Notes: generated by a model not told the origin, from the sequence alone. A stretch of 64,000 nucleotides of DNA from an uncultured Gammaproteobacteria bacterium (GCA_963744305.1 CAVUTF010000016.1:4459-68458); one strand, 5' to 3'. Numbered from the stretch's first letter, positions 1,714-40,060 are shown. Made by a program: numbers and translations.

Positions 1714-2109
1714 ATGATTAGACAAGCTTTGGGATGTGTCGTCGTGTTCGGGTGTCTGATGGCCAGTGCGTCGCTCCAGGCGCATCATTCCACCGCCGGC
1801 GTCTATGACCCGGCGAAGGAGGGGGAGGTCAAGGGCACGCTGGCCGGCCTCAAGTTCGTGAATCCGCACGGATCGATTGTGGTTACGGTGAAGAACACCG
1901 ACGGCACGACGACCGACTGGACGTTCACGACCGGTTCGGCCACGGCGCTCGCCGAGCGCGGGATCACCAAAGTCGGCCCGAACGCGCTCAAGATCGGCGA
2001 AGAGTTGACCGTGACGTTCACCCCGGCACGGAACGGGAGTCCATTGGGAGGCCTCAAGACGATTAAGCGGGCGGACGGCTCGGTCATAGGTAACCAAGGC
2101 GGCAATTAG
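1714..2109 (+). CDS. small exported HHS-NPH domain protein (DUF6152-like), module 1
   Basis: ATG 1714 with GGAGG 5 nt upstream (track ORF 1672..2109 starts too early). Signal peptide MIRQALGCVVVFGCLMASASLQA, predicted mature N-terminus HHSTAG, FVNPH motif about 30 aa later. Paralogue of five other ORFs in the window. Confidence 0.8.
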   Translation: MIRQALGCVVVFGCLMASASLQAHHSTAGVYDPAKEGEVKGTLAGLKFVNPHGSIVVTVKNTDGTTTDWTFTTGSATALAERGITKVGPNALKIGEELTVTFTPARNGSPLGGLKTIKRADGSVIGNQGGN

Positions 2110-2137
2110 TCAACTGCGCCCTCGACTGGAGATCACT

Positions 2138-3283
2138 ATGGCTTCTCAAAAACGAACGATGCCGACAGGTGTCGCCATCGTCGCGACTCTCATGATCAGC
2201 GTGCCGTCCCTGTCGGGCGCTCAAGTTACAATTCGAAGCATAGAGACGGCAACGGCAGCCGGCGACCAAGCTCCCCGCCGAGAGGAAGCGGTGCCCGAGT
2301 ACACGCCTGCGCCCGGCGCAAAGGACCTGAAGTCGGTCCTGTTCAACTGGGCTTGGTACACGGGAATGCTGCGGAGCACTGAGGAACGAGATCTGATCAT
2401 GACGCTCGTCTATGAGGGCAAGGGCACCATCCAAGTGGACGGACAGCCCTGCAATGTGACGAGGTACCGAACCGACATCAGCTACCGGGCGTCCGGTGAG
2501 CGGATCCGGATCACCGGCACTCGGCCCAATGGTCAGAGTTGCTCCACTATCGAAGTCCTCAGTGGAGCTTATGCCTGGAACGAAGACATTCAGGGTGCCG
2601 AACTGATTCCGGGCCAAGGCAAAGCCACTCCGATGCCGGCAACCGTCGAGGAGCGGATGATTCGCCTGTGGGCAAACCCGCAGGGTGCGTGGAAGGCCGC
2701 CATGGCCGGCACTCAGTCCACGAACGCACCTCAAATGGCAGCCAGGCCGCAAGGGGTACCCGCCGATGTGATGACGGCAGGCAAAACGTCAGTCAAATGG
2801 GAAGGCAACAAGCCGGTGCTGACGTTCCCGGTCCCGGGCGTCCCCAATGCAACGGCCACCGCCACACTCGACGCAAAATTCATGGCCGAGAGCGTCGTGG
2901 TCAAGAAGGGCGCGGACACGTACGAGTTCACTTACAGCGACTATAGAGATTGGAACAATCCGCTCCACCCCGCCGAGGTGTTCTATGCCGGCAAGATGAC
3001 GGAGAAGAAGAACGGCACCGTCGTCCGCGACATTACGACGACGGTGACGGAAACGGGACAGATGTATGTCGTAGTGCCTGTGCCGGCAAGCGTCAAGGCG
3101 GCGATCAAGCCAACGAATCAGCCTCTCAACTGGACGCTCGAGGGAGCGCCCGCGAAGGAGACTGCAGCCGTCGCCACGCCGCGCCGCGCCGACGGGAAGC
3201 CGGACCTGGACCGGAGTCTGGGGTCGCTGCATTTAATCCAATCGCGGGTAATGGACGCCGCCGATGTGGTCCAACGCAGGTGA
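2138..3283 (+). CDS. exported protein of unknown function (about 355 aa); probably the N-terminal part of a frameshifted fusion with 3280..3975
   Basis: Signal peptide MASQKRTMPTGVAIVATLMISVPSLSGA and protein-like composition throughout. The last credible residues ..RRADGKPDL start the PD[FL][ST]GV[WY] motif that opens the partner domain in the other modules; the ORF tail after that looks out of frame. Confidence 0.65.
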   Translation: MASQKRTMPTGVAIVATLMISVPSLSGAQVTIRSIETATAAGDQAPRREEAVPEYTPAPGAKDLKSVLFNWAWYTGMLRSTEERDLIMTLVYEGKGTIQVDGQPCNVTRYRTDISYRASGERIRITGTRPNGQSCSTIEVLSGAYAWNEDIQGAELIPGQGKATPMPATVEERMIRLWANPQGAWKAAMAGTQSTNAPQMAARPQGVPADVMTAGKTSVKWEGNKPVLTFPVPGVPNATATATLDAKFMAESVVVKKGADTYEFTYSDYRDWNNPLHPAEVFYAGKMTEKKNGTVVRDITTTVTETGQMYVVVPVPASVKAAIKPTNQPLNWTLEGAPAKETAAVATPRRADGKPDLDRSLGSLHLIQSRVMDAADVVQRR

Positions 3284-3975
3284 AGGGTGGAGGAGTCAAC
3301 CCCGAGTTCGGCTGCAGAGGCGGGCAAGACAACTTCTGGGTGGAATACGCGTGGATCTCGCCCTCGCGGTTTGGGGTGCTAGGTCTTCCCACTTACAAGC
3401 CCGAGTTGTGGGACCAGATTCAGGAACTCGATATGTGGACGAACAAGTACGATCCAGTCATGACGTGCATCCCGCTGGGACTCCCACGGCACGGCACGCC
3501 CCGGCGGATCATCCAAACCGATAAAGACGTCATCTTCTTCTATGGAGAGAATGCCGATTACGGTGGCGGAGCCAACGAATACCGCGACATCCCCACGGAT
3601 GGTCGCGAGCGGACACCGCGACAGTTGTCCCTCCCGACGTACTACGGGCAGAGCATAGGAACCTGGCAAGGGGATACGCTCGTCATCGACTCCATTTCAT
3701 TCAACGATGCCACGTGGTTGGGACGAGGGGGCTTCATCCACTCCGGCAGCATGCATATCGTCGAGAAACTCACACGTGTCGGAAATGAGCTCCGATACGA
3801 CATGACGATCGAAGATCCAGAGATGTTTGTCGAGCCCTGGGTGATGCCGACCCGCGTCCTGGCCCTGGGGGGCGGTGGCGGTGGCGGCGGCGGTAACTTC
3901 GACGGAATCCAGCCAGAGCGCGCGAGTTGCGAAGTGTACGAAGAGGACAACGTCACGATTCAGAGTCGACACTGA
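3280..3975 (+). CDS. GDTLV-domain protein (partner domain of HHS-NPH proteins), module 1
   Basis: GTG 3280 overlaps the upstream TGA (GTGA), but there is no signal peptide from that start. Family motifs MTCIPLGLPR, IPTDGR, GTWQGDTLVIDS, TIEDPEMFVEPW, ERASCEVYEED are present, with an internal 9xGly insert (3868..3894). TGVWG is readable in the third frame at about 3206-3222, suggesting 1-2 indels joining it to 2138..3283. Confidence 0.7.
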   Translation: MKGGGVNPEFGCRGGQDNFWVEYAWISPSRFGVLGLPTYKPELWDQIQELDMWTNKYDPVMTCIPLGLPRHGTPRRIIQTDKDVIFFYGENADYGGGANEYRDIPTDGRERTPRQLSLPTYYGQSIGTWQGDTLVIDSISFNDATWLGRGGFIHSGSMHIVEKLTRVGNELRYDMTIEDPEMFVEPWVMPTRVLALGGGGGGGGGNFDGIQPERASCEVYEEDNVTIQSRH

Positions 3976-3992
3976 GAACTGACCAAAGCAGA

Positions 3993-4035
3993 GTTAAGGG
4001 ACAGAGAGCAGCTCCTCTCTGTCCCTTAACTTTTT
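3993..4035 (+). terminator. Rho-independent terminator after module 1
   Basis: Perfect 16-bp stem GTTAAGGGACAGAGAG / CTCTCTGTCCCTTAAC with 6-nt loop CAGCTC, followed by TTTTT. It lies 18 nt after the stop at 3975. Confidence 0.85.
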
Positions 4036-4117
4036 GTAGCGGAAGCCCGCCCCGGAGAGATGGCCGAGTAGTCGATGGCGGTGGGGTTGAAAACCACTGA
4101 CTTGGAAGAGAGCCTCA

Positions 4118-5161
4118 GTGCGGCCGAAGCGTTCGCAGCAACGTATGATTCGACCCCTCCCGCTTGCTCTAGTCGCGTTAGCGGCGACGCAGACCACGTG
4201 GACACAGCAGCCGCTCACGCACGATCTCGCGTTGGAGCCCGGGCATGTGCATTGGGGTTACTACGACTCCCGCGTACCGCCGGTGCTGCGGATCGCCTCG
4301 GGCGATCGCGTACGGGTGGAGACGATGGTCGCAGGCGGACTGCAGCGCGTCAGATTGGCGGGAGCAATTGAGTCTGAGATTCCGGAGTCGCTGAAAGCCG
4401 TCGAGCTCGGTGTCACTGAGCGGGGCCCAGGCGTACATCCAATGACCGGGCCGATCTTCGTAGAGGGCGCCGAGCCAGGCGACTCCCTGGAGGTACGTAT
4501 TCTCGCAATCGATTTCCTTCATCCATTCGGCGTTGTTGCGTTCAATCCCGGCGGAGGCGTCATCCCAGACGAGTTTCCCTACGCGCATTTCCGGATGCTG
4601 CGATGGCAGCCGGGGGCCGACCGCTTCGAGTTCAACCCTGGGATTTTACTAAGCCTTGCGCCCTTCTTCGGCTCGATTGGGGTAGCGCCCCCACCCCTCG
4701 TCGGAAGAATTTCGAGCCGCCCGCCTGGATGGCATGGCGGCAATCTAGACAACAAAGATCTCGTGGCAGGATCAACGCTGTACTTGCCGGTCCATGTGCC
4801 AGGCGCCCTTCTGTCGATCGGTGACGGCCACGGTATGCAGGGCGACGGCGAAGTCACGGGCACAGCGCTGGAAACGTCACTTCGGGGCACATTCGAGGTG
4901 CGCGTCCGCAAAGGCCAGCGGCTGCGTTGGCCTCGCGCGGAGACCTCAACGCACTACATCAGCATGGGACTTCACGAGGATCTCGATGAAGCCACACGGC
5001 TCGCCACCCGCGAGATGATCGAGTTTCTGGTCGCCGAGAAGGGGCTGTCACGAGACGAGGCATATGTGTTGTGTTCGCTGGCGGCCGATCTGCATGTGAC
5101 GCAAGCTGTCGATCAAACGAAAGGCGTGCACGCGACAATCGCGAAGTCCATCTTCAAATAG
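4118..5161 (+). CDS. acetamidase/formamidase family amidase, exported
   Basis: Blocks GPIFVEGAEPGDSLEV, GGNLDNKDLVAGSTLYLPV and GDGHGMQGDGEV are typical of the FmdA/AmdA family. The likely true start is ATG 4145 (MIRPLPLALVALAATQT signal peptide). Confidence 0.8.
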   Translation: MRPKRSQQRMIRPLPLALVALAATQTTWTQQPLTHDLALEPGHVHWGYYDSRVPPVLRIASGDRVRVETMVAGGLQRVRLAGAIESEIPESLKAVELGVTERGPGVHPMTGPIFVEGAEPGDSLEVRILAIDFLHPFGVVAFNPGGGVIPDEFPYAHFRMLRWQPGADRFEFNPGILLSLAPFFGSIGVAPPPLVGRISSRPPGWHGGNLDNKDLVAGSTLYLPVHVPGALLSIGDGHGMQGDGEVTGTALETSLRGTFEVRVRKGQRLRWPRAETSTHYISMGLHEDLDEATRLATREMIEFLVAEKGLSRDEAYVLCSLAADLHVTQAVDQTKGVHATIAKSIFK

Positions 5162-5438
5162 GGGGGGCCGGACGCGGTCGTTATGCGACTCTCCTATGAG
5201 CATCAGGCAGTCAGTCGTCTCGCACCTTGAGTTGCTCTCCCAGCCATCGCTACAGCCCTGGAGTACGAGGGCAAAGTCCCAATCGCCAACGTTCATGGTG
5301 AATTGGTCAGCGGCCTCTGCAGCGATTTGTATCACCCGAAGAGTCAACAGACTCGGTTTGCGGCCGCTGTCCTGACCGTGGGCGTATGATCCGGCTCAAA
5401 TGCGGCGTTCCAGCGTCTCTTCGAGCGGGAGCAGGTGC

Positions 5439-5690
5439 ATGAAGCCACTAGTGCTCACTTTGTTTTTCCTAACTGCTAGCGCCTTTGCGCAGAACACGCA
5501 CGACCCCGTGCAACTATGCCGACAAATCTTCAGCCTCGAACAAGCTGTCGGGAAACTGCTCGTCAAGTTCCCAGAAAACCATCCCGACATCGTATTGCTG
5601 CGCAAAGAGATCGAAGCGCAGCGCACGCTGCTTGAGCAAGTGGCGCCCGGTACTTGTTTAGTTCGCCGAATAGCGCCGAATACGAACTAA
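5439..5690 (+). CDS. small exported protein, unknown function; C-terminus possibly truncated by the adjacent IS remnant
   Basis: ATG 5439 gives signal peptide MKPLVLTLFFLTASAFAQ followed by helical-looking sequence. It sits in a lower-GC patch, and its 3' end overlaps the transposase remnant. No homology recognised. Confidence 0.35.
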   Translation: MKPLVLTLFFLTASAFAQNTHDPVQLCRQIFSLEQAVGKLLVKFPENHPDIVLLRKEIEAQRTLLEQVAPGTCLVRRIAPNTN

Positions 5691-5900
5691 GACGTCGGGG
5701 CGATGGAGCGTCGGCCGCGTGCGGACGATGGTAATTGTAGTAGTCCTCCCACTCACGGAGCTTCTGTATGAGATTCTCCTGGTGGCGCCGGCGTTCGCGG
5801 CACGTTCCGCGACCGATCGTCGATGCGCGGCCCGCCGTCGTGCCGATCCGACGAACGACGGCCGCTGCATCGGTGTGCGTGACCTCCGGCCGAAGCTGCG
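5660..5900 (-). mobile_element. degraded C-terminal remnant of a DDE (rve-type) transposase/integrase
   Basis: The minus-strand frame of track ORF 5563..6417 reads ..ENLIQKLREWEDYYNYHRPH.. (about 5719-5775), the characteristic end of the integrase core domain. Upstream sequence is only loosely rve-like and out of frame. No catalytic core and no inverted repeats were seen. Confidence 0.45.
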
Positions 5901-5960
5901 CATGCTGTCTCCAAGCAGTAACTCGTGGTGAAAGGGCCAGACGGCAGGTCGGCGAGCCGA

Positions 5961-7115
5961 TCACTGCACCTTGATGTATTTGCGTAGGTTGTTCGGCCCG
6001 ACGTCCGCTGCATAGATGTTGCCCTGCGCGTCGACGGCGATGCCGGACGCCGACGTGCCCGTGTCGGTCATCTTGCTGAGATCGGTCGGATCGGGAATCA
6101 GATACTTGAGCTCGCCCGAAATCGCGTCGCCGACGACGATGGCCCGATCGTTCGGCCCTGAGATCGCGGCCGTCGCCGACTCGCCGCGGGACGGATCCTG
6201 GTACGTAGCACCCACGTACAAGTTGTCCTCGGCATCCACGTACACGGAGCTCGGCTGACCGAACTGCGACCAGGCGGCAATGAACGTGCCCTCTTGATCG
6301 AAGACCTGCACGCGCCGATTCAACCGATCCGCAACGTAGACCCAGCCGCGCGATCCGCCGACGTAGAGATCGTGCGGCTCGCTGAAGTTTCCGGGCGTCG
6401 AGCCGGGGCTGCCCCACGATTTGACGTACTGGCCGTCGCGCGTGAACTTGATGATGCGGCTGTTGTTCGAGCGGTTGGTTGCGTGACCATCGGCCACGAA
6501 GATGTCGCCGTTCGCACCGATAGACACGCCCGTCGGCCGGTCGAACAGCCCGGGTGCGCTACCGCCCTGTCCCGGCGTGCCGAGCGTCATCAGCACTTCG
6601 CCGTCGGGGCTGATCTTGAGCGCGGTTTGCCCGAGCGGGCGTCCGCGCGCGTCTTTCGCCGGGATGCCGAGAATCGACTCTTTGTCGTTTGTATCGGTCG
6701 TCCACAGGTTGCCGTCGCGATCCACGGTGAACCCGTGCGGACTCGCGAACAGCCCGACGCCGATGCTGCGCAGCAACTCACCGGCTGGACTGAACTCGAG
6801 GAGCGGCGGATTGGCTGCGCCGCGCGCGAGGCACGTGGCGTCGCCGTTCGGCTGGTCGTGGAAGCAGCGATTGAACACCCAGATGTTGCCGTTCGGCGCC
6901 AAGTGGATGCGGATCACCTCGCCCCACTTGCGCCCGTTCGGCCCTTTCATCGACGCCGGCAACGTCGGCCAGTCCGGGTCGAGTCGGTACGGGTTCGGGA
7001 GCGTGGGCCTCGGCGCGGCCGGCGAGCTGCCTTGTGCGTACACCAGCACCGGCACGAAGGCCACGAGGACGAGGCTCAACAGAACCCCGACGCAGGAACG
7101 GGCTGGACCACGCAT
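5961..7115 (-). CDS. NHL-repeat six-bladed beta-propeller protein, exported
   Basis: True start is ATG 7115 (AGGAGG upstream) with signal peptide MRGPARSCVGVLLSLVLVAFVPVLVYAQG. Repeated NHL-like blades are present (GNIWVFN, GNLWTTD, GDIFVADG, GWVYVADRLNRRVQVFD, DNLYVG, GNIYAADV). Confidence 0.8.
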   Translation of the reverse strand: MRGPARSCVGVLLSLVLVAFVPVLVYAQGSSPAAPRPTLPNPYRLDPDWPTLPASMKGPNGRKWGEVIRIHLAPNGNIWVFNRCFHDQPNGDATCLARGAANPPLLEFSPAGELLRSIGVGLFASPHGFTVDRDGNLWTTDTNDKESILGIPAKDARGRPLGQTALKISPDGEVLMTLGTPGQGGSAPGLFDRPTGVSIGANGDIFVADGHATNRSNNSRIIKFTRDGQYVKSWGSPGSTPGNFSEPHDLYVGGSRGWVYVADRLNRRVQVFDQEGTFIAAWSQFGQPSSVYVDAEDNLYVGATYQDPSRGESATAAISGPNDRAIVVGDAISGELKYLIPDPTDLSKMTDTGTSASGIAVDAQGNIYAADVGPNNLRKYIKVQ

Positions 7116-7329
7116 CACTCGGGCCTCCTGTATGTTGTTCTTCGCGACCTTGCCCAATGCGAGGAGACTCGGACGGCTCGAATCGTCGGCCGATTGTAGC
7201 GCGAGATCCGTTTGGCGGTTCCTGAGGTTGACTCCCCATTTTCGGCTTCGTAGGCTCGTTAGCTCAGGGGAGCGCGCCGGTCCACAATCCGGCGGCCGTG
7301 AAATTCTTTCAACGCGTTGGGGGTGCTCA

Positions 7330-8647
7330 ATGAAGGCCAAGAATCGAGGGCGTAGGCAGTTCTTGAAGCAGAGCGCGGCCTTGGCCGGCGGACTGACCGC
7401 GACGTCAGCGCTTCTAAACGACTCAGCCCTTGGCCAGGCGGGCGATCCTCAGACCGATGCCACCAACTCCGTCGACGCCGTCCTGTACGGACGCCGCTCG
7501 CGCTTCGTCACGACCGTGCGCGTCATCGAGGGGTCGAGCAGCCCCGAGAATTCGCCGCCGCGGCCCGACCCGTATCGGCCCTCGGCCAAGACGCCCGTCG
7601 GCGATCTCATCGGCATCATCACGCCGACGTCCCTGCATTTCACGACGCAGCACTTCTATGGCATCCCGGACATCGATCCGGAACGGCATCGGCTCATGAT
7701 TCACGGCATGGTGGATCGTCCGCTCGTGTTCACGATGGAGGAGCTCAAGCGGATGCCGTCGGTGTCGCGCGTGCACTTCATCGAGTGCATCGGCAACCGC
7801 CCGAATCCGCAAGGCCGGACCGCCGCCGACACGCACGGCCGGATGGGCTGCAGCGAGTGGACCGGCGTGCCGTTGTCCTTCCTGCTGCAAAGAGGCCGGC
7901 GTCCAAGACGGCGCGAAGTGGATCGTCGGCGAAGGCGCCGACGGCGGCAAGCACGGCAAGAGCGTGCCGCTCGCCAAGGCGCTCGACGACGTGCTCGTGG
8001 CCTACGGCCAGAACGGCGAGCCTGTGCGGCCCGACCACGGCTTCCCCCTGCGGCTGCTCGTGCCGGGCATGGAAGGCATCTATCAGGTCAAGTGGCTGCG
8101 GCGCATCAAGGTCGTCGATCAGCCGTATCTGACCTACCAGGAATCCTCGCGCTTCCTGCACGACGATCCGCGGACGCAGCCGAACACCTATGAGTTCGGG
8201 CCGAAGTCGGTCATCACGGCCCCGTCGGGCGGTCAACGCTTGTCCCGCCCCGGCCTCCACACCGTGACCGGCCTCGCCTGGTCGGGTGGCGGGGCCATCC
8301 GCTCGGTGGAAGTGTCCACCGACGGCGGACGTACCTATCAGCCCGCGGAGATCGCGGGGCCCGCGCTGCCGCGAGCGTTCACTCGCTTCAACTTCCCGTG
8401 GACTTGGGACGGCAAGGAGACCGTGCTGCAGTCGCGTTGCGTGGACGAGCGCAACCAACGTCAACCGTCGGAGGCCGAGTTCATGGAGTACTGGGGCATG
8501 ACGCGCCCGGAGCTCTACCGCGCCTCGAACACGCGGCTCGGCCATTGCAACTGGATTCAGGCGTGGAAGGTCACGCCGACAGGCGACGTCGTCAACGGCC
8601 TCGAGCCCATCAACGTCACCATCACCGACGTCCACGAACATGCGTAA
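7330..8647 (+). CDS. sulfite-oxidase-family molybdoenzyme (SoxC/SorA-like), Tat-exported; interrupted by an apparent 1-nt indel
   Basis: ATG 7330 with Tat signal MKAKNRGRRQFLKQSAALAGG, then HFTTQHFYGIPDIDPERHRLMIHGMVDRPLVFTMEELKRMPSVSRVHFIECIGN. The protein continues in track ORF 7964..8647 (PLRLLVPGMEGIYQVKWLRRIKV plus dimerisation domain). The frames join at the AAA run 7889-7891 (..LSFLLQ / KEAGVQDGAKWIVGEGADGGKHGKSVPLAKAL..). Confidence 0.85.
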
Positions 8648-9263
8648 CGGCCGGAGGCTCGTCCTGCTGACCGTGGCAACACTCGCCACGAGCGTGTACG
8701 CGCAGACGGAGCAGGAGATGCGGACCGCGCCAATCCTGCGTGCCCCGGAGCCGCAAGCGGGGACCGGCCGCGGACCCAACCGGATCGGCCGCCCGCCCAC
8801 GGCACAGGAGATCGAGCAGTGGGACATCTCGATCGGGCCCGATGGCGCAGAGCTGCCGGAGGGCAGCGGAACGGCCACGCAAGGCGCGCTCGTCTTCACG
8901 CAGCGAGACTGCTCCACGTGCCACGGCCCGACGGGCGTCGAAGGACCGGCCAACGAGCTCGTCGGCGGCAAGCCCTCGACTTCGTCGAGTTACTTCCCGA
9001 TCGTGTATTGGCCCTTCGCCACGATGATCTGGGACTTCATCCATCGCGCCATGCCGTACGACCGCCCGGGTCGGCTGACGAATGACGAAGCCTACGCGCT
9101 GACGGCGTTCCTGTTGTTCCGCAACGGCATCATCGAGGAGGCGGATGTGATGGACGCGAACAGCCTGCCGCGAGTGCAGATGCCGCATCGGTCCGCGTAC
9201 ACCGTTCCCGAGCCGTGGAAGCCCGGCACGCATAAGGGGATGCAGGTCCTCGTCGGGCGGTGA
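8640..9263 (+). CDS. c-type cytochrome (SoxD/SorB-like partner)
   Basis: The ATG overlaps the upstream stop by 8 nt. Signal peptide present, and a single CSTCH haem-binding motif. Confidence 0.8.
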   Translation: MRNGRRLVLLTVATLATSVYAQTEQEMRTAPILRAPEPQAGTGRGPNRIGRPPTAQEIEQWDISIGPDGAELPEGSGTATQGALVFTQRDCSTCHGPTGVEGPANELVGGKPSTSSSYFPIVYWPFATMIWDFIHRAMPYDRPGRLTNDEAYALTAFLLFRNGIIEEADVMDANSLPRVQMPHRSAYTVPEPWKPGTHKGMQVLVGR

Positions 9264-11455: not shown

Positions 11456-11569
11456 CTGTTGAGCGCCGCTTTCATCCGCGCTATCCGCCGGCGAACGTGT
11501 GCACGCCGTGCGTAGCGAGCGCTAAACTGCGTCAGAGCGAATTGCCGACTCGGGGATCCGGGGGGAGCC

Positions 11570-12619
11570 ATGCATTCGACAGCGACGTTGATGTGTCTCG
11601 TCACCGCGGGCCTTGTGAGCCACGCGTCTCTTGTGTCCGCGCACCACTCGCGGGCGAACTTTCAGCTCGACAAGCTCGTTGAGCTCAGCGGCGTCGTCAC
11701 CGACGTCAAGTGGGCCAATCCACACGTGTACTTCGAGATGAAGCTCGAGGACGGCGAGACCTGGCTGATCGAGGGACATTCTGTTCCGGGTGCTTTGGGG
11801 CTCGGCTGGACTCGGGACACCCTCAAAGTCGGAGACCAGATTCGAATCGGCGCCAATCCCAATCGGAATACTGACAAGGAGTTCGCGCTGCTCCAGTGGG
11901 TGGTCGCAGCCGACGGCCTTGTGTACCCCGCGTTTTCGAGCCGGCAGATCCCAGCGGGGCTACTGGCCGCAGCGAGCGCTGGAGCGACGAGGAGCGACGA
12001 GCCTGCCGTGCAGCCCTCCACGGATTTCTCCGGCGTTTGGGAGGTGGACCTGCGCGGCGTCAATCTCACTACCGGAGTCTTCGATCCGGAGCCGGGCGTG
12101 CCTCTGACCGCCATCGGAGAGGAACAGGTCGCCCGTTTCGACGCCGACGAGAACCCTAGTTTCCAATGTATTACGAGTGGCATACCGTTCACGGGACCTT
12201 ACGGCCTGAAATTCACGCGCTACGACAACCGGCTCGTGATGGAAAAGGAGCACCAGGACGTGCGGGTCACCGTCTGGCTGAACGAGCCACCCGCAACTCC
12301 CCCGCCGCCGAGCCATCTCGGCTTCTCGGTCGGACGCCTAGAAGGTGATGACACACTGGTGTTCGAGACGACGCGTTTCACGCCTGCCAAATGGGGCATC
12401 TCCCGCGGTGTGGACTCGAGCGATATGAAGCACATCAAGGCCCGATTCGAGCTCCAGCCAGGGGGCCTTGCCATCGACTTCACGTACGAGATCACCGATC
12501 CGGTGTATCTGACGGCACCGCTGATCCGTACGGGCGTGCTGTTGAAGAAACCAGACCGCGAATTCATCGACGAACCTTGTGATCCGGCGATTAGCTCGTT
12601 GCATTTGAGCCAAGAATGA
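11570..12619 (+). CDS. fused HHS-NPH + GDTLV-domain exported protein, module 2
   Basis: ATG 11570 (GGGGGAG SD) with signal peptide ending ..SLVSA then HHSRAN and WANPH. After a linker come TDFSGVWEV, SFQCITSGIP, GRLEGDDTLVFETT, EITDPVYLTAPL, DEPCDP. Confidence 0.8.
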   Translation: MHSTATLMCLVTAGLVSHASLVSAHHSRANFQLDKLVELSGVVTDVKWANPHVYFEMKLEDGETWLIEGHSVPGALGLGWTRDTLKVGDQIRIGANPNRNTDKEFALLQWVVAADGLVYPAFSSRQIPAGLLAAASAGATRSDEPAVQPSTDFSGVWEVDLRGVNLTTGVFDPEPGVPLTAIGEEQVARFDADENPSFQCITSGIPFTGPYGLKFTRYDNRLVMEKEHQDVRVTVWLNEPPATPPPPSHLGFSVGRLEGDDTLVFETTRFTPAKWGISRGVDSSDMKHIKARFELQPGGLAIDFTYEITDPVYLTAPLIRTGVLLKKPDREFIDEPCDPAISSLHLSQE

Positions 12620-12635
12620 CTCGTCGAACGCAGGG

Positions 12636-14259: not shown

Positions 14260-15240
14260 TTGTCGTTTGGAGTGCCGTTGCTGGCCGCGTTGGCCCTCAA
14301 CGCCCCCGTCACGACCTTCGCTCACCATTCGGTCGCGTACTATTCGACCGAGATGATCGAGCTCGAGGGCGAGATCACGAAGATCGAATGGCAAAATCCG
14401 CACATCCGATTTGAGTTGCGCGCCGTCGATAGCGACGGTGCCGGAAAGACATGGCGGCTCGAAGCCAGCGCGATCTTCTTGCGCGAGAAAGAGGGTGTGA
14501 CGCGCGACCTCTTTCATGTTGGCGACGCGGTGAAAGTGTACGGACGTCCGGGGCGCCAAGATTCGTCCGCCTTGCTCGTGACGAATATGCTGCTTCCGGA
14601 CGGCCGAGAGGCACCGCTTTGGCCGAACACGACCGCGCACTTTGTGACGCTAGACAAATGGATCACCGCGAAGCCGCAGCTTGTTGAAGCGGCCGCGGAA
14701 AATCGAGGACTCTTCAGGGTATGGCGGCCGAACGGGGCTTCGCTCGCGGCGCTACCTTATACGGACACGGCGGTGGCTGCTCGCAAGTCGTTCGACCTGC
14801 TCGCTGCTGCCGGACGCTGCGGCCCGGAAGGTATGCCGCGGATCATGATCACGCTGTTCCCCTATGAGTTCGTTGACCGCGGCAACGAGATCTTGGTACG
14901 CGCGCAGCTATACGACACTGAGCGCGTCATTCATATGGATCGCACCGCGCCGCCGCCGGGTGAGCCTCATTCCGTGCTTGGTTACTCCGTGGGAGAATGG
15001 CGTGACGGCGTGCTGGTGATCAAGACGAGCCTCGTTAACTGGCCATATTTCGATCAGATCGGTACGCCGTTGAGCCCGGACGTGCAGATCGAGGAGCGCT
15101 ACACCGTGAGCGACGATCAGACTCGGCTTGATGTCGAAATCACGGCTACCGATCCGAGCACATTCACGGAGCCCGCGATCATCCAGAACTCGTGGTTGGC
15201 TTACGGCGACACGATTCAGCGCTACGAGTGCGTTAGATGA
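14260..15240 (+). CDS. fused HHS-NPH + GDTLV-domain exported protein, module 3
   Basis: ..LLAALALNAPVTTFA then HHSVAY and WQNPH; C-half AAGRCGPEGMPRIM, GYSVGEWRDGVLVIKTS, ITATDPSTFTEPA, QRYECV. The start is uncertain: in-frame TTG 14260 or GTG 14272, while an ATG at 14253 with a perfect GAGGAG SD is out of frame, hinting at another indel. Confidence 0.7.
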   Translation: MSFGVPLLAALALNAPVTTFAHHSVAYYSTEMIELEGEITKIEWQNPHIRFELRAVDSDGAGKTWRLEASAIFLREKEGVTRDLFHVGDAVKVYGRPGRQDSSALLVTNMLLPDGREAPLWPNTTAHFVTLDKWITAKPQLVEAAAENRGLFRVWRPNGASLAALPYTDTAVAARKSFDLLAAAGRCGPEGMPRIMITLFPYEFVDRGNEILVRAQLYDTERVIHMDRTAPPPGEPHSVLGYSVGEWRDGVLVIKTSLVNWPYFDQIGTPLSPDVQIEERYTVSDDQTRLDVEITATDPSTFTEPAIIQNSWLAYGDTIQRYECVR

Positions 15241-25577: not shown

Positions 25578-26338
25578 CTACTTGACCGACAAAAGGCCCT
25601 CCGCACACGAGAACTCGCGCAGCTCGTCGTTCGGCGGCGATGCTTTCCGATACGTACGAATCTGGGTGTGGGGTTCGAGTAACGCCTTCGGATCCGTTGC
25701 CGTGATCCGATCCTCGAGGATGCCAGGCGACGTAAATCTGATGCGCTCGTGCACGGTGAGCTGATCGCTGTGCGGCGAGAACAGGTCGAGCAGCGTGTCC
25801 TCGCGAATGGCCACGGTGTCGACGACGAGCGTGTCGCCTTCCCAATGCCCGACGGAATACCCCCCGAACGTCGGATCGTCGAGCGTTCTCTGTGACGGCT
25901 TGCGTCCGTCCAGATAAATCCGGCGATACACGTCGTTCAGCTCGCCGTACATGCTGACCTTGTCCTTCGTCTGCTGAATTTCCATGCCGTAGCCCATCGA
26001 CATCATCCCGGGCATGCCGGCAGAGAGGCAGTTGGCGTTCGGATCGGTGTCAGACTCTCCAGCCATGCGCGACTGCCGCATGGCCTCCCACTTGGCAAGG
26101 TACTCGGGCGCGAGCTTGGGCGCGGTCGCCGGCCGGCCCTCACGCCCGTCGATCACCCTCACGGGTCGCGGCGGCGTCCCCGCACCGCGCGGCGCGGCTG
26201 GCGCCGCGTCCGCGTTAAACGGATAGTACACGCCGGAAAAATCCGGATGCGCCGGCGTCTCCTGCGCGCGAATCATGCCGTCGATCCAGGCAGCAGGCAT
26301 ACGAGCGCCACGGAAAGCACAGCAATGGTCTTCGACAT
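25578..26338 (-). CDS. GDTLV-domain exported protein, module 4; apparent frameshift near 26290
   Basis: ATG 26338 (GGAGGGAGG SD, 21 nt after the stop of 26360..26731) encodes signal peptide MSKTIAVLSVALVCLLP and then hits a TGA. The mature part continues in track ORF frame: HPDFSGVYYP, NANCLSAGMP, YLDGR, GHWEGDTLVVDT, ITATDPKALLEP, EFSCAEG. Confidence 0.75.
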
Positions 26339-26359
26339 GATGTCCTCCCTCCGCCGCGA

Positions 26360-26731
26360 TTACTGAGGCGTCGTCTGTGACAGCACGGTGCCATCGGCGA
26401 GCGTGACGCGCGTGGCGAGACCGGTGTGGCTGCCGTCCCTCGCCGGGCTGAAATCCACCGTGATCGTGTCGCCGGGCTTGAAGGTGTTCTTCGACCATCC
26501 GGAACGGGCCAATATGCCGGGCGGGCGGCCCTCGATCTCCCACGCCGTCTTGCCGCCGTTGCCGTCGTCGACCGACAGAAAGATCCACACGTGCGGGTTC
26601 GTCCACCTCCATTCCGTGACCGTGCCTTTGAGCACGACCACCTTCTCGGGGTCGAACGCCGAGTTGCTGTGGTGCGCGAGGGCGGACGTCGCCGCCAGCA
26701 GCACCGCGATGACAACAAGCCAGGTTCTCAT
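26360..26731 (-). CDS. small exported HHS-NPH domain protein (DUF6152-like), module 4
   Basis: ATG 26731 (GGGAGG SD) gives MRTWLVVIAVLLAATSALA then HHSNSAFDPEKVVVLKGTVTEWRWTNPHVW. Confidence 0.85.
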   Translation of the reverse strand: MRTWLVVIAVLLAATSALAHHSNSAFDPEKVVVLKGTVTEWRWTNPHVWIFLSVDDGNGGKTAWEIEGRPPGILARSGWSKNTFKPGDTITVDFSPARDGSHTGLATRVTLADGTVLSQTTPQ

Positions 26732-26777
26732 GTGCAATCCTCCCGATGACGCCATGACATTAGCACGGAGGCGAGCA

Positions 26778-26793
26778 CTATGGGTGCCCATAG
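26778..26793. promoter_or_regulatory. 16-bp palindrome CTATGGGtgCCCATAG in the divergent promoter region between modules 4 and 5
   Basis: Perfect 7-bp arms, roughly central in the 128-bp intergenic region 26732-26859. A second small inverted repeat ACTGTttACAGT lies at 26810-26821. A regulatory role is inferred only. Confidence 0.3.
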
Positions 26794-26859
26794 AACGTCG
26801 GCCCCCTATACTGTTTACAGTCGACTAAGGCCCACTAGAAGCCGCTTCGGAGGTTGGCG

Positions 26860-27240
26860 ATGACGCGAAATCTTCTGGCCATCTTTGCACTCGTGGCGGT
26901 CACGGGGCCCGTTTTCGGTCACCACTCGGAAACGGCGGAGTTCGATCAGAGCAACCCGGTGAAGGTGACCGGCACCATCGTCAAAGTGGAATGGCTGAAT
27001 CCGCACGTCTGGTTCTACGTCGACGTGAAGGATGAGAAAGGAGACGTAACGACCTGGGGATTTTCCGGAGCGCCTCCGGGTGCTCTGATGCGTCGGGGCA
27101 TCACCAAGGAGGTCCTGAAAATCGGCGCGGTCGTCAACGTCGAAGGCTCACGCGCACGCGATGGGTCCAACAACGCTTCGGGCCGCAGCGTGACTTTCCC
27201 CGACGGCAAGAACGTGTTTACGGCAACACGAAGGTGGACG
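26860..27240 (+). CDS. small exported HHS-NPH domain protein (DUF6152-like), module 5; no in-frame stop before the next gene
   Basis: ATG 26860 (GGAGG 6 nt upstream) gives MTRNLLAIFALVAVTGPVFG then HHSETAEFDQSNPVKVTGTIVKVEWLNPHVW. It reads straight into ATG 27241 in the same frame. A TGA overlapping that ATG (ATGA) exists in the +2 frame, suggesting a lost frame near 27215-27240. Confidence 0.75.
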
Positions 27241-28007
27241 ATGAAAAACGCATGGCTACGGTCGAGCGTTCTTGCCGCAGCGATGGTGCTTGCGGCGGCC
27301 GCAACCTCGAGCGCTCAGGACATTCCCCGTATGCCGGACGGGAAGCCGGACTTCTCCGGTATCTACACGCCGCCATCAACGGTGAACGCGACCGGTCCCC
27401 GCGGCAACCTGATCTTCAACGCGGACAAGATGGCTCCGGTCAAGCCCGGCGCCGAAAGCTTGCTCTATGAGGCCCGCAACGGTGACCCGCGTCACGATGA
27501 GCCGCGCGCGATGTGCCTGCCGGCAGGCTTTCCTTCCGGCATGCTGTACATCTTGCCGATTCAGATCGTCCAGAATCCCAATCACATCGTGATCATTCCG
27601 GAGCTGCAGCGCGCGGCCCGGATCATCCCGACCGACGGTCGCCCGCACCGAGAGGGGATCGAGCCCTCGTACTACGGCGACTCGGTGGGACGGTGGGAAG
27701 GAGACACGCTCGTCATCGATACCGTCAACTTCAAGCGCTGGATCCTGGACGACTATCATTACACCGACCCGACCAAGACCCGCTGGCACAGCGATGCGCT
27801 CCGCACGACCGAACGCCTGAAGCGTGACGGCGACAAGCTCCTCTACCAGATCACGATCGACGACCCGAAGATTTTCATGCGGCCGTTCTCGCAGGACTTC
27901 GAATTGACGTTGCGCCCGGACTGGGAGAGCTCGGCCTTCTGGAGTACGTTTGCGAGGAGAACAATCGGTGCGCGGGAGGAAACTGCCGTCCGTCGGACGT
28001 TCAGTAG
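27241..28007 (+). CDS. GDTLV-domain exported protein, module 5; apparent frameshift near 27926
   Basis: ATG 27241 with AAGGTGGA SD and its own signal peptide MKNAWLRSSVLAAAMVLAAAATSSAQ. Motifs DGKPDFSGIY, RAMCLPAGFP, IPTDGR, GRWEGDTLVIDT, ITIDDPKIFMRPF. After ..RPDWE the family C-terminus LGLLEYVCEENNRCAGGNCRPSDVQ-stop (TAG 28005-28007) is in the -1 frame, so the track ORF end at 28155 is spurious. Confidence 0.75.
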
Positions 28008-28052
28008 ACATATATACAAGGTGTCGCGCCGATCGGCGGCGCGCCGTGCTCA

Positions 28053-28832: not shown

Positions 28833-28906
28833 CGCTCCTCCATTCGATCGGTTAAACGCGTCAAAGGGTACCACTGGCACGGCGGCGGTCTCGGGCTCAC
28901 TATGCC

Positions 28907-29908: not shown

Positions 29909-29954
29909 TGTGCAGTACGTTGCCGCGCACCGGCGGGAGGACTCCGTGCTTCGA

Positions 29955-31375: not shown

Positions 31376-31377
31376 GT

Positions 31378-32389: not shown

Positions 32390-32451
32390 GAAATCTGCAT
32401 CGAGTACGATGTCGTCGCAAATGCGAAGTTGAAGAAGGCACCGGACTACTT

Positions 32452-33702: not shown

Positions 33703-33709
33703 CTCGGCG

Positions 33710-33754
33710 CGCGGCGGTACGGGATCGCCGCTCAATCCAATCGCGACTTTCTAG
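33710..33754 (+). repeat. 45-bp direct repeat, copy 2 (orphan copy of the cyclase 3' end, 7 nt after the CMD stop)
   Basis: cgcggcggtacgggatcgccgctcaatccaatcgcgactttctag. The single difference (acc to act) is synonymous in the cyclase reading frame. Confidence 0.9.
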
Positions 33755-33951
33755 CAGGTTGCCGATCGGCCGCCGGGGCGCTCGCGCCTTGCGCATCGAG
33801 CGATGCGCACTCGGTATTCACGTATATCCACCTGTGCCCGGCAACGCTGTAATGAGGCTCGAGTGCGGCGCCGCCTCGGCAGCACCTGCCTTGCGAGGCC
33901 ACGGACGAGAGCGGAAGCGGTCGTCGTTGCGATCCGTTAAGAGGTGTAATC

Positions 33952-37983: not shown

Positions 37984-38394
37984 ATTGTATTTATTGTATT
38001 TGCGCGTATGCGATTGAGAACACGCTCGCCTTGCGGCTTGTCGTGGCCCACCGCACGCAGCAAAACGCTTGCGGACTATTGTCGAGTAGCACCGAAACGG
38101 GATCAAGCGATGCGGGTGCGAACGTGAGCGCAAACCGATTAAGTCACATGGTATAGGGTTGCCACTTCGAGCCGAGCCGTTTGCTCAGAGCGTGATGGCC
38201 GTGGCTGCCGCGATCATAATACTTCCGCGCCTGCGCCCGACGTGGTCTTGTGGCAGAAGCGCCACGCCGATTCCTTGGAAACCATCGCGCCGTAAGGCCA
38301 CAATTTGAGCCTGCGCTGCTCGCGATGGTACGCTGGAACGACAGTTGATCCGTTTTTTTCGTGGCTAGGTGCCGACGCAACACACGACCGCGCA

Positions 38395-39617
38395 ATGCGA
38401 ATAAGAAGAAGAACCGTCGTCCTCGGGATCGTGATGTTCTATCTCATGCTTGAAGCGGAGTCTTTCGCAGTCTTGCAGGGCCTGAATCTCTTCAGACCGA
38501 ATCTCTTTGTTCACGGCTTTGTCGATCGCCACTTCGATTCCATCACGGACGATTACCGAAAGGCGTTTGTCGAAGAAGGACAGTACGACGCCGCGCTCGG
38601 TTGGGACAACGTGCCCTCGATAACGTGGCAAGACAAGAACAGGGTAGGCGAGCTCTAGGCGAGCCAATCACGTACTCTTACGACGCCGACGGCTCTCGAG
38701 CGGACAACCTGCCGCCGAAACAGCTTCTCATCAGTACGTACGGGGACTCGTACACGAACTCTGACGAGGTCGAGAACCACGAAACCTGGCAATACTTTCT
38801 GGAATCGCGCATTGGCTACGAGGTGAAGAATTTCGGCGTCAGCGGCTATGGCACCGATCAAGCGGTGCTCAAGCTCGAAAAACACCTAGCTCACGGATTC
38901 TCAGCTCCGATCGTCATCCTCGGAATCTTGGACGAGAACATCAACCGCGTCGTCACCTCGTTCTACCCTCTTTACGCTGAAACGACCGGTGCCACACTCG
39001 CGTTCAAGCCGTCTTTCCGAGTCGCCGCGGACGGTCACGTGCAGATGAGCCCGAACCCGTACGGCCGGCCGGAATTGACGCTCCAGAACTTGCGGGAGCT
39101 GGCTCATCGAATTGCGGAACAAGACTTCTGGGTGCAGACAACGGGGAAAATCGACATTCGTTTTCCGTACACCTACCAGGTTGTTCGTGTGACATCCGTG
39201 GTCGCGGGCCGAAAAATCCGAGATTGGTCGGATTCCCCGAGCTACGTCGACTCCGTCAACCTATGGGAGACGGCGGAGGGTAGCGCCGTCATGCACCATC
39301 TGATCGATCGGTTCGTGGAGCTGACATCGCAGTCGCATGCGATCCCGCTAGTCTTGTTCATTCCGAGAGGCGAGCGCTTGCGTACCAACGAGCGGCGATA
39401 TGCGCGCTTTGCCGACGAGATTCGAGCACGCCACACCGGGCTTTACGTAGTTGATTTAATGGACCACGACTTCGACAAAGAGCGGTTCCAGATTCGGCCA
39501 TACGATGGGCATGCCTCCGCGTACGGCAACGAGGTCATCGCCCGTCTGATCGAGCAGACCTATGAGGACATCAAGAAAGAGCACGAGATCGCTCCGGCCT
39601 CGACGCTCACGCAATGA
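38395..39617 (+). CDS. SGNH/GDSL-like hydrolase with N-terminal TM anchor; apparent frameshift near 38650
   Basis: ATG 38395 gives MRIRRRTVVLGIVMFYLML (track ORF 38305..38658), which joins track ORF 38601..39617. Blocks STYGDSYT, GVSGYGTDQ, YDGHASAYGN. Confidence 0.7.
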
Positions 39618-39643
39618 TGACGCTCGGAAGTTACCTCAGCGAC

Positions 39644-40060
39644 CTACTTCTTGATGTCGAAGAATCCGTCATCAACGGGCTCTGCCGTTCCGCCGTCCCA
39701 ATCCTTGATGGATCCATCGGCGGCTTGCACGAAGCCGAGAAGACAGCCTTCCGATCCGTCCCTGAGTTGGTGGCAACGCGCCTTGATCTTGTCGCCGGGC
39801 TTGATGTAGCCCGGCACGACGCCGATCTTTAGAAGCCCCGCGCGGCCGGTGGCCTCCAACGCCCAGGTGGTCGCTTCACCGTTTGCGCTCTTCACTTCCA
39901 GGTACACCCAGGAGTGCGGATTTATCAGTTGCACTTCGGTGACCGTCCCCTGCACGTCGATGAAATCCTGTTTGTAGTTGCCGTGTGAATGATGTGCCGA
40001 GACGGGCAGCACGAGCGCCACCGCACAGATGACACCAAGACCGCAGGCCTTAAGCGACAT
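39644..40060 (-). CDS. small exported HHS-NPH domain protein (DUF6152-like), unpaired copy
   Basis: ATG 40060 (AGGAG SD) gives MSLKACGLGVICAVALVLPVSA then HHSHGNYKQDFIDVQGTVTEVQLINPHSW. Confidence 0.85.
   Translation of the reverse strand: MSLKACGLGVICAVALVLPVSAHHSHGNYKQDFIDVQGTVTEVQLINPHSWVYLEVKSANGEATTWALEATGRAGLLKIGVVPGYIKPGDKIKARCHQLRDGSEGCLLGFVQAADGSIKDWDGGTAEPVDDGFFDIKK

Follow-up and report, generated by a model that had tools for sequence, protein, structure and literature searches.

The stretch analysed here (the window) is 64,000 nucleotides of DNA from an uncultured Gammaproteobacteria bacterium (GCA_963744305.1, CAVUTF010000016.1:4459-68458). It carries six copies of a small exported domain (A) whose mature chain is predicted to begin with His-His-Ser, and five copies of a second domain of about 230 residues (B) beside or fused to them. 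The locus raises the question of whether A and B form a conserved unit and what such a unit might do. The first-pass annotation of this DNA knew of no assigned function, and a search of one literature library likewise found no paper mentioning DUF6152 or PF19649, the family to which A belongs.

Copies of A and B in the window

In a regular expression search of all six frames, HH[ST]-x(15-45)-NPH occurred exactly six times, each time in one of the ORFs previously listed (Table 1). All six match DUF6152 (PF19649), which the first domain had earlier been noted to resemble, with 55.8-119.1 bits (E 5e-15 to 9e-35) against a gathering cut-off of 27 bits. The A-containing proteins match no other Pfam family at E<=0.01, save for a sub-threshold Glyco_hydro_30C match on A1. 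The translation of A1 shows a signal peptide ending in SLQA directly before HHS, with NPH further on. HMMs built from the window copies and run against its six-frame translation recovered six A and five B copies, and all other matches had E>=0.9. The orphan A6 sits downstream of an unrelated secreted 251-aa ORF (40113-40868), which is not a B relative and has no Pfam match.

Table 1 Positions of the A and B copies and of the intervening ORF X in the window.
Feature	Position	Strand	Description	Evidence
A1	1714..2109	+	stand-alone DUF6152 protein, 131 aa	PF19649 E 1.7e-19; regular expression; translation
X	2138..3283	+	secreted 381-aa ORF	three-frame reading of 3150-3420
B1	3196..3975	+	B domain, PDLTGVW start in another frame, body 3280-3975	B HMM E 5e-76; alignment; frames
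A2B2	11570..12619	+	true fusion, 349 aa	Pfam; 78 homologues; AlphaFold
A3B3	14260..15240	+	true fusion, most divergent copy	Pfam E 5e-15; A and B HMM matches in one ORF
B4	25578..26338	-	secreted B protein (253 aa in relative)	B HMM E 4e-99; indel mapped
A4	26360..26731	-	stand-alone DUF6152, 123 aa	Pfam E 9e-35; AlphaFold OB fold; Foldseek
A5	26860..27240	+	DUF6152	Pfam E 6e-25; comparison with relative L001 (128-aa gene there)
B5	27241..28007	+	secreted B protein (255 aa in relative)	B HMM E 5e-86; frames; indel
A6	39644..40060	-	orphan DUF6152, 138 aa, no B nearby	Pfam E 1e-22

We compared the gene models with those of a relative whose identity is 93-94% over these genes and ~95-96% over syntenic blocks. 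Three small deletions set the window apart from it: 1 nt at 26275, 2 nt at 27228 and 1 nt at 27926. The first deletion breaks B4, which is an intact secreted protein in the relative (P0001 is 97% identical and intact), and the third moves the C-terminal LEYVCEENN segment of B5 to another frame. Since a frameshift falls within each of them, the intervals given for B4 and B5 have lengths that three does not divide. A fusion of A5 with B5 was considered and rejected: the 2-nt deletion joins their frames, and in the relative they are separate genes with an ATGA overlap. On the minus strand A4 directly precedes B4, with a 21-nt gap, and A5 is divergent from A4 across a 128-bp spacer.

The only true fusions in the window are A2B2, in which DUF6152 occupies residues 1 to ~125 and B starts after a linker at about residue 140, and A3B3, whose start codon is uncertain. 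X stands between A1 and B1, so that B1 does not directly follow A1, and its end (DGKPDL, continuing as TGVW) appears to read on into B1 after frame changes. X has no Pfam or NCBIfam match, is unrelated to the B profile and has no homologue in the fetched loci. The earlier statement that five of the six A copies are immediately followed by or fused to B thus stands for the number of B copies and for their adjacency or fusion, except at A1/B1, where X intervenes. Its gene models hold apart from this extra domain, the restriction to two real fusions and the several frameshifts.

The five B copies represent a second exported domain without a database name. No match was found for them in Pfam, NCBIfam or PDB sequences; a profile search of the PDB gave nothing better than E>0.6, and 102 diverse members had no Pfam match at E<=1, lipocalin and lipid-binding families included. 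The family is very large and, at 50% identity, numbers 15,113 representative clusters. The sequence skeleton proposed for all five copies is exact in B4 and B5, but in B1 it can be read only by allowing two frame changes at about 3196-3260, and it is degenerate in the fused copies: B2 has no DGR, and B3 has GEWRDGVLV in place of W-x-GDTLV and no PDFSG. A G-x-W motif lies at the start of the domain, and E133, R139, E198, R199, D216 and E242 are conserved charged residues. The alignments contain no invariant histidine, and a conserved cysteine pair probably forms a disulfide.

Pairwise identities within the window are 21-37% for A and 22-35% for B, close to the ~25-40% estimated by eye. A counterpart of A4/B4 in a gammaproteobacterial MAG is closer (52-53% identical) than any window paralogue (<=37%), which supports the old expansion suggested earlier.

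Conservation of the A/B pairing

The pairing of A and B is a real and widespread two-part module that recurs across several bacterial phyla. DUF6152 was present in 55 of 80 genome loci anchored on B, and 67 of 121 B domains had an A domain within 700 bp. Conversely, B was carried by 27 of 37 metagenome loci that were anchored on A and had at least 1 kb on both sides. Fused homologues of A2B2 number 78, nearly all of ~350 aa and with PF19649, and both gene orders of the two domains occur. Adjacency or fusion, whose conservation outside this contig had been left to a neighbourhood analysis, is kept in Acidobacteriota, in Alpha-, Beta- and Gammaproteobacteria and in the one Acidimicrobiia locus; the one Gemmatimonadota locus showed B without A. 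Three to six paralogues lie within a few kb in the window and at other loci. The identity matrices of A and B are correlated (r=0.62), and none of 2000 permutations gave a value as high. Shared descent by itself would account for part of such a correlation between neighbouring genes.

Export signals and the N-terminal histidines

A hydrophobic leader with an AxA-type end precedes every A and B copy. In the genome-derived loci (L001-L083, several phyla), all 70 DUF6152 instances read HH[S/A/G]; in 69/69 copies with enough upstream sequence the residue at -1, just before the pair, is Ala, Gly or Ser, and the 70th, truncated copy has HHS. In these 70 copies xPH follows HH at a fixed spacing of 22-24 residues. 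An alignment of 72 A sequences shows no variation at H1, H2, S3, P27 and H28, and the W24-x-N-P-H28 motif places a conserved Trp near the candidate ligand histidine. Signal-peptidase cleavage at the predicted position would leave A with a free His1-His2 terminus. Histidine as the first residue, whose amine and imidazole can chelate copper in histidine-brace proteins (LPMO, pMMO PmoB, CopC, PmoF1, X325), is thus predicted for the six window copies and the 69 scorable relatives. The invariant histidine of NPH is a candidate for the second histidine that completes the T-shaped three-nitrogen coordination of such proteins.

Predicted structures and comparison with known proteins

The AlphaFold model of A4 (pLDDT 92) shows an OB fold of five strands, strands 3 and 4 being separated by a helix. 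Its top Foldseek matches are the OB folds of SSB, LysRS and Stn1 (probability 1.0, TM 0.5-0.6); neither CusF nor CopC is among the top matches listed. The model of B is a barrel of roughly 10 strands, and its best PDB matches, which are weak, are CRABP-II structures (probability 1.0, target TM 0.53-0.57, E ~6e-4). The fused A2B2 protein was modelled with a pLDDT of 87.9 and a pTM of 0.81.

In its model, the fold of B resembles the intracellular lipid-binding, calycin-like barrels. As in CRABP/FABP and lipocalins, the predicted barrel is antiparallel with G-x-W at the start of the domain. In contrast to them, B is secreted, is ~90 residues longer, has a helical segment at the N-terminus and a tail at the C-terminus that the cysteine pair ties, and shows no sequence relationship to lipocalin or lipid-binding Pfam families. 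In ZinT/YodA, which is periplasmic, a calycin-like barrel goes together with a mature N-terminus that is rich in histidine and used in metal handling, whereas the histidines of A/B lie on a separate OB domain, B has none that is invariant, and there is no ZinT Pfam match.

CusF is a small periplasmic OB-fold Cu/Ag chaperone with His/Met/Met ligands. A shares with it the fold and a Trp near the candidate ligand histidine, but its ligands would be His and amine. The CopC (PF04234), YcnI (DUF1775), CusF and BOF (YgiW) profiles do not match the A-containing proteins at E<=0.01. Copper proteins of the CopC, YcnI and PCuAC type are encoded beside the CopD-family membrane proteins with which they work, as A/B lies beside CopD-like DUF6644 in seven loci. 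They are small and exported, and the histidine that heads the mature chain helps to bind copper (PMC10952591); A would likewise start with histidine. They differ in having a single N-terminal His instead of His-His and a cupredoxin-like or Ig-like sandwich instead of an OB fold; A also has an obligatory barrel partner and many paralogues per locus, and copper at A is only putative. A known histidine-brace fold (Ig/FnIII-like or cupredoxin-like beta-sandwich) was rejected for A, given its OB fold.

Genomic neighbourhood

Of the 82 genome-derived loci that were clustered, 7 (L021, L029, L031, L038, L055, L071 and L080) have genes for DUF6644, mostly in tandem, next to A/B; the window has none. 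These proteins score above their own Pfam cut-off and below those of DUF2214 (E 2e-5, 25 bits vs 34.1) and CopD (E 1.5e-3, 19 bits vs 32.1), with a weak match to UPF0093 (HemJ-like) as well. By sequence, DUF6644 is likely a remote relative, not a member, of the CopD and DUF2214 families. TonB receptors flank A/B arrays in L082, L164, L166, L021, L055 and others; L021 and L055 thus have both a receptor and DUF6644 in the cluster. No classical copper genes were seen near A/B. The neighbours are mostly catabolic enzymes without a consistent theme. PQQ dehydrogenases, of which one or more carry a cytochrome c domain, occur in 8 loci, and one occurs in the window. Genes of the metallo-beta-lactamase fold, amidohydrolases and putative metallopeptidases recur, and an HbpS-like gene was found in two related loci.

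Possible functions of the module

For the function of the module, we infer a periplasmic 1:1 A/B complex in which an N-terminal histidine metal site, possibly of copper type, is docked on a ligand barrel; as a whole, this reading is put forward tentatively. A would be an OB domain of ~100 residues with the invariant Pro-His in the loop after strand 1, 22-24 residues beyond His1-His2, and B a domain of ~230 residues and roughly ten strands, the two pairing 1:1 in the periplasm or being covalently fused. That they form a physical complex is very probable, given the fusions, the confident fused model, the linkage and the correlated divergence. The metal would be held by the N-terminal amine, the terminal histidines and the loop histidine of A. 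Such a site is moderately probable from the sequence pattern; Cu(II), which histidine-brace and N-terminal X-His sites bind, would be the likeliest metal, and its assignment is plausible but falls short of probable. The OB fold occurs in no known histidine-brace protein, which counts against the metal reading, as do the small share of loci with CopD-like neighbours, their absence from the window and the lack of classical copper genes among the neighbours seen.

B, which has no invariant histidine, may offer either a pocket that takes a small ligand or a surface for docking. Ligand or partner would vary from one paralogue to the next. Some Proteobacteria encode the pair in a cluster with a TonB-dependent receptor and two CopD-like membrane proteins, which suggests a relay of metal or electrons between the outer and inner membranes; we regard this role as rather doubtful. 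The bacterial N-terminal-histidine copper proteins CopC, PmoF1 and YcnI serve mostly in copper transport and are clustered with transport genes (PMC10952591). Many paralogues within a few kb would be unusual for a metal chaperone and would better fit diversified ligand binding or catalysis.

A metal-independent protein that captures or shuttles ligands for the TonB-dependent import of organic nutrients, its N-terminal histidines touching the ligand or a receptor instead of a metal, would suit the flanking TonB receptors, the hydrolase and oxidoreductase neighbours typical of uptake and catabolic loci, the likeness of B to ligand-binding barrels and a diversification of paralogues towards varied ligands. 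It is nevertheless unlikely, leaving unexplained why His-His are the very first residues in 70/70 copies when elsewhere A has diverged to ~25% identity. The proximity of TonB receptors is weak evidence because they are very numerous in these lineages, and the receptor cluster was found in 7/82 genome-derived loci.

The invariant N-terminal His and the lipid-binding type of barrel would also fit a copper-dependent oxidative enzyme, in which A acts like the histidine brace of LPMO/pMMO, B holds a small hydrophobic substrate and the paralogues vary that substrate. The enzyme would draw its electrons from redox partners in the periplasm or from membrane proteins of the haem-binding CopD/HemJ-like kind; the PQQ dehydrogenases and the weak match of DUF6644 to haem-binding UPF0093 are in line with this. 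The conserved charged residues of B exceed what a plain binding barrel usually keeps, and the dense paralogue arrays stand amid catabolic neighbourhoods. However, no redox partner is consistently adjacent, the fold of A is unrelated to LPMOs, and known bacterial histidine-brace derivatives are mostly transport proteins whose redox activity has not been convincingly shown (PMC10952591). This makes a quite improbable alternative.

Binding of haem, another tetrapyrrole or a cofactor in the barrel, where the histidines of A would serve as axial ligands in the manner of nitrobindin-like barrels or haemophores, is very unlikely: the barrel fold, the invariant histidines on the partner, the HbpS-like genes and the TonB receptor context would allow it, but there is no match to any haem-binding family and no haem-uptake gene nearby, and axial ligation by chain residues 1-2 would be unusual. 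TIMPs are secreted OB folds whose free N-terminus chelates the catalytic zinc of the target, and a TIMP-like inhibition or regulation of secreted metallo-hydrolases by A, with B as a second barrel as in serralysin inhibitors, can be all but set aside, since, despite the OB fold, the obligatory free N-terminus and the recurring hydrolase genes, the N-terminal residue differs, neither TIMPs nor the serralysin inhibitor family give a sequence or top-ranked structural match, no one hydrolase family is consistently adjacent and the B partner is unexplained.

The boldest reading, which we consider improbable, is that DUF6152 constitutes a new and very widespread OB-fold N-terminal-His copper centre that, together with the barrel, would make periplasmic copper oxidases or peroxygenases acting on small hydrophobic molecules, each pair with its own substrate. 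If this were true, LPMOs and pMMO would have in A/B a bacterial counterpart that acts on soluble substrates.

Copies of the A/B module and their gene models

A six-frame scan of the window for HH[ST]-x(15-45)-NPH gave exactly six stretches, and these lie in the same six ORFs that the first-pass annotation had listed. All six copies of the first domain, A (A1–A6), matched PF19649 (DUF6152) in Pfam with 55.8–119.1 bits, above the cut-off of 27 bits, and the family suggested in that annotation was therefore correct. Profiles derived from the window recovered six A copies and five copies of B, the second, ~230-aa exported domain (B1–B5), from the six-frame translation, and all remaining matches had E ≥ 0.9. 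The E-values, together with homologues numbering in the thousands, rule out chance or artefact; the recurrent A/B module in the window is real, far beyond chance. Pairwise identities among the window copies are 21–37% for A and 22–35% for B. The motif skeleton proposed around GDTLV is exact in B4 and B5 but degenerate in the fused B2 and B3.

The window has a high GC content (60–67%). A 234-kb ENA contig (L001) is syntenic with it and ~95–96% identical, and three short gaps relative to L001 affect the B4, A5 and B5 reading frames (Table). The corresponding genes in L001 are intact, encoding A4 (123 aa), B4 (253 aa), A5 (128 aa) and B5 (255 aa), with A5 and B5 overlapping at ATGA. A2B2 and A3B3 are true fusions; A5 and B5 are joined only by a 2-nt gap. 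The PDLTGVW start of B1 is in a different frame from the B1 body and comes directly after ORF X, a secreted ORF of 381 aa with no homologue in Pfam, NCBIfam or the fetched loci. Because the start of B1 adjoins its end, ORF X is probably the N-terminal part of a longer protein of which B1 is the C-terminal domain; comparison by hhalign rejected ORF X as a degenerate B (probability 1%). A molybdopterin oxidoreductase gene is likewise split between frames, so the indels are general and probably assembly errors, with real mutations as the alternative. The frameshifts also suggested a pseudogene array, which we judged unlikely since the shifted frames are open and conserved and the close relative has intact genes.

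A6 has no B nearby. A secreted 251-aa ORF without a Pfam match lies 52 nt upstream of it and may be an alternative partner; hhalign rejected this ORF as a relative of B (probability 8%). Between the divergent A/B pairs, a 128-bp spacer in the window corresponds to a 5.3-kb block in L001 encoding Omp85-like, glycosyltransferase 25 and EptA-type sulfatase proteins. Downstream of B4, the window has an alpha/beta hydrolase gene and L001 a beta-lactamase-fold gene.

Table Positions of features in the window and in related loci.
Locus	Feature	Position (strand)	Remark
Window	ORF X	2138-3283 (+)	Between A1 and B1
Window	B1 start	3196-3260 region	Frame differs from B1 body
Window	Molybdopterin oxidoreductase gene	~7340-8647	Split between frames
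Window	Sulfite-oxidase-like molybdoenzyme and adjacent cytochrome c	7340-9263 (+)	SorAB-like
Window	G8/CEMIP beta-helix protein (731 aa)	9260-11455 (+)	After SorAB-like pair, just upstream of A2B2
Window	A2B2	11570-12619	True fusion
Window	A3B3	14260-15240	True fusion
Window	Indel	26275	1 nt missing relative to L001; B4 body cut off from its signal peptide
Window	Spacer	26732-26859	128 bp
Window	Indel	27228	2 nt missing relative to L001; A5 brought in frame with B5
Window	Indel	27926	1 nt missing relative to L001; B5 C-terminus shifted
Window	A6	39644-40060	No B nearby
Window	Secreted ORF	40113-40868 (-)	Upstream of A6
L001	5.3-kb block	4266-9564	Between divergent A/B pairs
L021	DUF6644	7046-8073	B-B-TonB receptor-A-DUF6644-DUF6644
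L038	DUF6644	802-1839	DUF6644-DUF6644-B-A
L080	DUF6644	4573-5628	DUF6644-DUF6644-B-A
L031	DUF6644	4996-5789	B-B-B-B-A-DUF6644
L055	DUF6644	455-2003	TonB receptor-DUF6644-DUF6644, divergent from B-A-A-B
L071	DUF6644	4747-5820	Beside A/B
L029	DUF6644	46-570	Beside A/B
L082	DUF6152 array	6731-11342	Three to five genes, mostly fused; Gammaproteobacteria
L164	DUF6152 array	6771-12559	Three to five genes, mostly fused; Gammaproteobacteria
L083	DUF6152 array	1-10087	Three to five genes, mostly fused; Gammaproteobacteria

Conservation of the A/B pairing

The neighbourhood of B was analyzed in 80 loci from species-representative genomes and MAGs of Acidobacteriota, Alpha-, Beta- and Gammaproteobacteria, Gemmatimonadota and Acidimicrobiia. 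Two of the sources are cultured strains that carry the module, Sphingobium xanthum NL9 and Alteraurantiacibacter buctensis M0322. The window itself has its nearest matches in Vicinamibacterales-type Acidobacteriota. DUF6152 was present within 6 kb in 55 of the 80 loci; 67 of 121 B domains had an A within 700 bp, and 64 of 68 A domains were clustered with B. The gene orders were AB (16), BA (15) and also ABB, BAAB and divergent arrangements. In a reciprocal set of 80 metagenome contigs anchored on A, 37 A domains had 1 kb or more of sequence to either side, and 27 of these had a B within 700 bp; of the A domains near a contig edge, 45 of 77 did. Adjacency and fusion, first noticed on this contig, are thus conserved outside it.

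The identity matrices of A and B are correlated over 68 adjacent pairs (r = 0.62), a value reached in 0 of 2000 permutations. The three loci nearest to A4 are also, in matching order, those nearest to B4, with A4/B4 identities of 97/95% (L001), 76/73% (L002) and 52/53% (a gammaproteobacterial MAG), and A5 and B5 behave likewise. Since partners share their nearest loci and no two paralogues inside the window exceed 37% identity, the A/B pairs are old units inherited, or transferred, together, in line with the old, maintained expansion initially proposed. Three and four fused genes occur within 5–6 kb on two gammaproteobacterial chromosomes, and another carries five DUF6152 genes in 10 kb. NHL, sulfatase, metallo-beta-lactamase-fold and HbpS-like genes are interspersed among these arrays, with TonB receptors at the flanks.

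Size and identity of the B family

The B4 sequence had 4,441 database matches, every one annotated as hypothetical and lacking a Pfam domain. A B profile searched against 1.84 billion representatives detected no fewer than 15,113 clusters (50% identity) with E ≤ 1e-3 (8,664 with E ≤ 1e-10). Of the top 150 representatives, 128 have one B domain (~250 aa), 21 have two in tandem (~500 aa; within P0200-P0333) and one is an A-B fusion. Pfam gave nothing for the window copies and no plausible family for 102 diverse members at E ≤ 1, and NCBIfam gave no match. Among PDB sequences, a single B query had no match and the 102-sequence profile found nothing (best E 0.6, streptavidin). The second domain is thus without an assigned family, and judged by sequence B belongs to no described one. 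Its absence from Pfam and NCBIfam, given the number of clusters, is a large gap. Homologues of A2B2 numbered 78, nearly all of ~350 aa with PF19649 and with identities down to 30%. Ten long homologues of B or A (P0342, P0281, P0212, P0200, P0348, P0310, P0321, P0196, P0153 and P0399), examined for extra domains that might hint at function, contained DUF6152 alone or no recognised domain.

Genomic neighbours

The neighbours in the window are heterogeneous: formamidase, an NHL propeller, molybdopterin oxidoreductase with cytochrome c, a G8/beta-helix protein, a serine beta-lactamase-fold protein, winged-helix regulators, a Kelch protein, class II aldolase, amidohydrolases, DUF1254/DUF1214, PQQ dehydrogenase and a metallo-beta-lactamase-fold protein. 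When neighbouring ORFs were clustered over 82 genome-derived loci (L001-L083), no family occurred in more than eight, which leaves no universal third partner. The most frequent were NHL propellers and PQQ dehydrogenases (8 loci each, at least one of the latter with a cytochrome c domain), followed by DUF6644 and TonB-dependent receptors (7 each), metallo-beta-lactamase folds (6) and short-chain dehydrogenases (5).

DUF6644 is the most informative of these neighbours. Its four-helix membrane proteins of ~170 aa adjoin A/B mostly as tandem pairs (Table) and have an invariant histidine in helix 1; none is encoded within the window. Their sub-threshold matches are to DUF2214 (E 2e-5), CopD (E 1.5e-3) and HemJ-like UPF0093.

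Export signals and predicted structures

Each A and B copy carries a hydrophobic leader that terminates in an AxA-type site. Both domains are exported, and conservation extends to their linkage, fusion and co-divergence. In the genome-derived loci, HH[S/A/G] is present in 70 of 70 DUF6152 instances (55 HHS, 7 HHA, 7 HHG and 1 truncated HHS), and HH directly follows the −1 residue in all 69 scorable cases (Ala 64, Gly 4, Ser 1). An xPH motif follows 22–24 residues after HH and is NPH in 65. The invariant residues of A in a 72-sequence alignment are H1, H2, S3, P27, H28, G59 and G68. Three close DUF6152 homologues (P0368, P0450 and P0452) carry the JGI label 'plastocyanin', with no supporting profile match.

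The folds of A and B are both confidently predicted. The AlphaFold model of mature A4 (pLDDT 92, pTM 0.85) has five strands with a helix between the third and fourth, and places NPH in the loop that follows the first strand. Foldseek against the PDB gave generic OB folds (probability 1.0, TM 0.5–0.6, E ~5e-4), the best being Rim1/SSB, the lysyl-tRNA synthetase anticodon-binding domain and Stn1/Ten1. No known periplasmic metal-carrier OB fold or TIMP was among the top 50 matches; all were nucleic-acid-type OB folds, and a specific structural link of A to CusF, TIMP or CopC was therefore rejected.

The model of fused A2B2 (pLDDT 87.9, pTM 0.81) consists of the OB domain, a linker of low confidence, a segment of helices and a short strand, ~10 strands and a helical tail. 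Its B part matched best with lipid-binding barrels of the CRABP-II type (probability 1.0, target TM 0.53–0.57, E ~6e-4), and B may resemble calycin barrels, though at the fold level only. Conserved in B are a G-x-W near the start, G108-x-P110, E133, R139, E198-R199, D216-P217 (B4 numbering) and the motif G-x-S-x-G-x-W-x-G-D-T-L-V, with no invariant histidine. The conserved Cys104 and Cys245 probably form a disulfide joining the N-terminal segment to the tail. In the fusions, a linker takes the place of the B signal peptide and the start motif of mature B is retained, as expected for a 1:1 A:B complex.

Proposed function

The conserved, co-inherited and sometimes fused pairing predicts a 1:1 complex, and this pattern together with the confident two-domain model makes it very likely that A and B bind each other in this ratio. 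The processed N-terminus of A is probably functional, most plausibly as a metal site with the NPH histidine, because nothing else explains why His-His always comes first while the domain drifts to ~25% identity. His1 with a free amine corresponds to the histidine-brace arrangement, and His2 with a free amine to the X-His Cu(II) motif. The universal His-His N-terminus predicts a metal site, probably of the copper type; Cu(II) itself is a reasonable candidate, with the chances somewhat against it, and the metal may instead be nickel or zinc. By profile score A is a member of DUF6152 and, having no profile match to them, lies outside the CopC, YcnI, CusF and BOF families. Known histidine-brace proteins also differ in fold from the OB fold of A in Foldseek comparisons, and A may work like them though it is not classifiable with them.

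Bacterial histidine-brace derivatives (CopC, PmoF1 and YcnI) have mostly been associated with copper transport and are clustered with transport genes (PMC10952591). The strings of TonB receptor, A, B and CopD-like genes parallel those clusters, and the CopD-like neighbours argue for a metal or electron hand-off. A metal relay is a tentative reading of the role, open to considerable doubt; a simple chaperone fits poorly with the number of paralogues and with the catabolic neighbours. Ligand capture independent of a metal is slightly less likely than a relay, and oxidation by copper of a ligand bound in B less likely again. The module may be an exported N-terminal-histidine metal protein, and a more distinct identity is possible.

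The label DUF6152 already exists, and the literature searched contained nothing relevant on DUF6152, PF19649, DUF6644 or DUF2214. Features that appear undescribed there are the partner family B, its conserved pairing and fusion with A, the predicted OB fold and universal His-His N-terminus of DUF6152 and the link to CopD-like proteins. In Acidobacteriota and Proteobacteria from soil and freshwater, A and B form a conserved pair that is inherited together and in some cases fused, and hosts with many pairs are organisms known to degrade complex organic matter. If the metal site is true, an OB-fold scaffold would join the short list of N-terminal-histidine copper proteins, and the role of dozens of paralogous pairs per genome would become a question.
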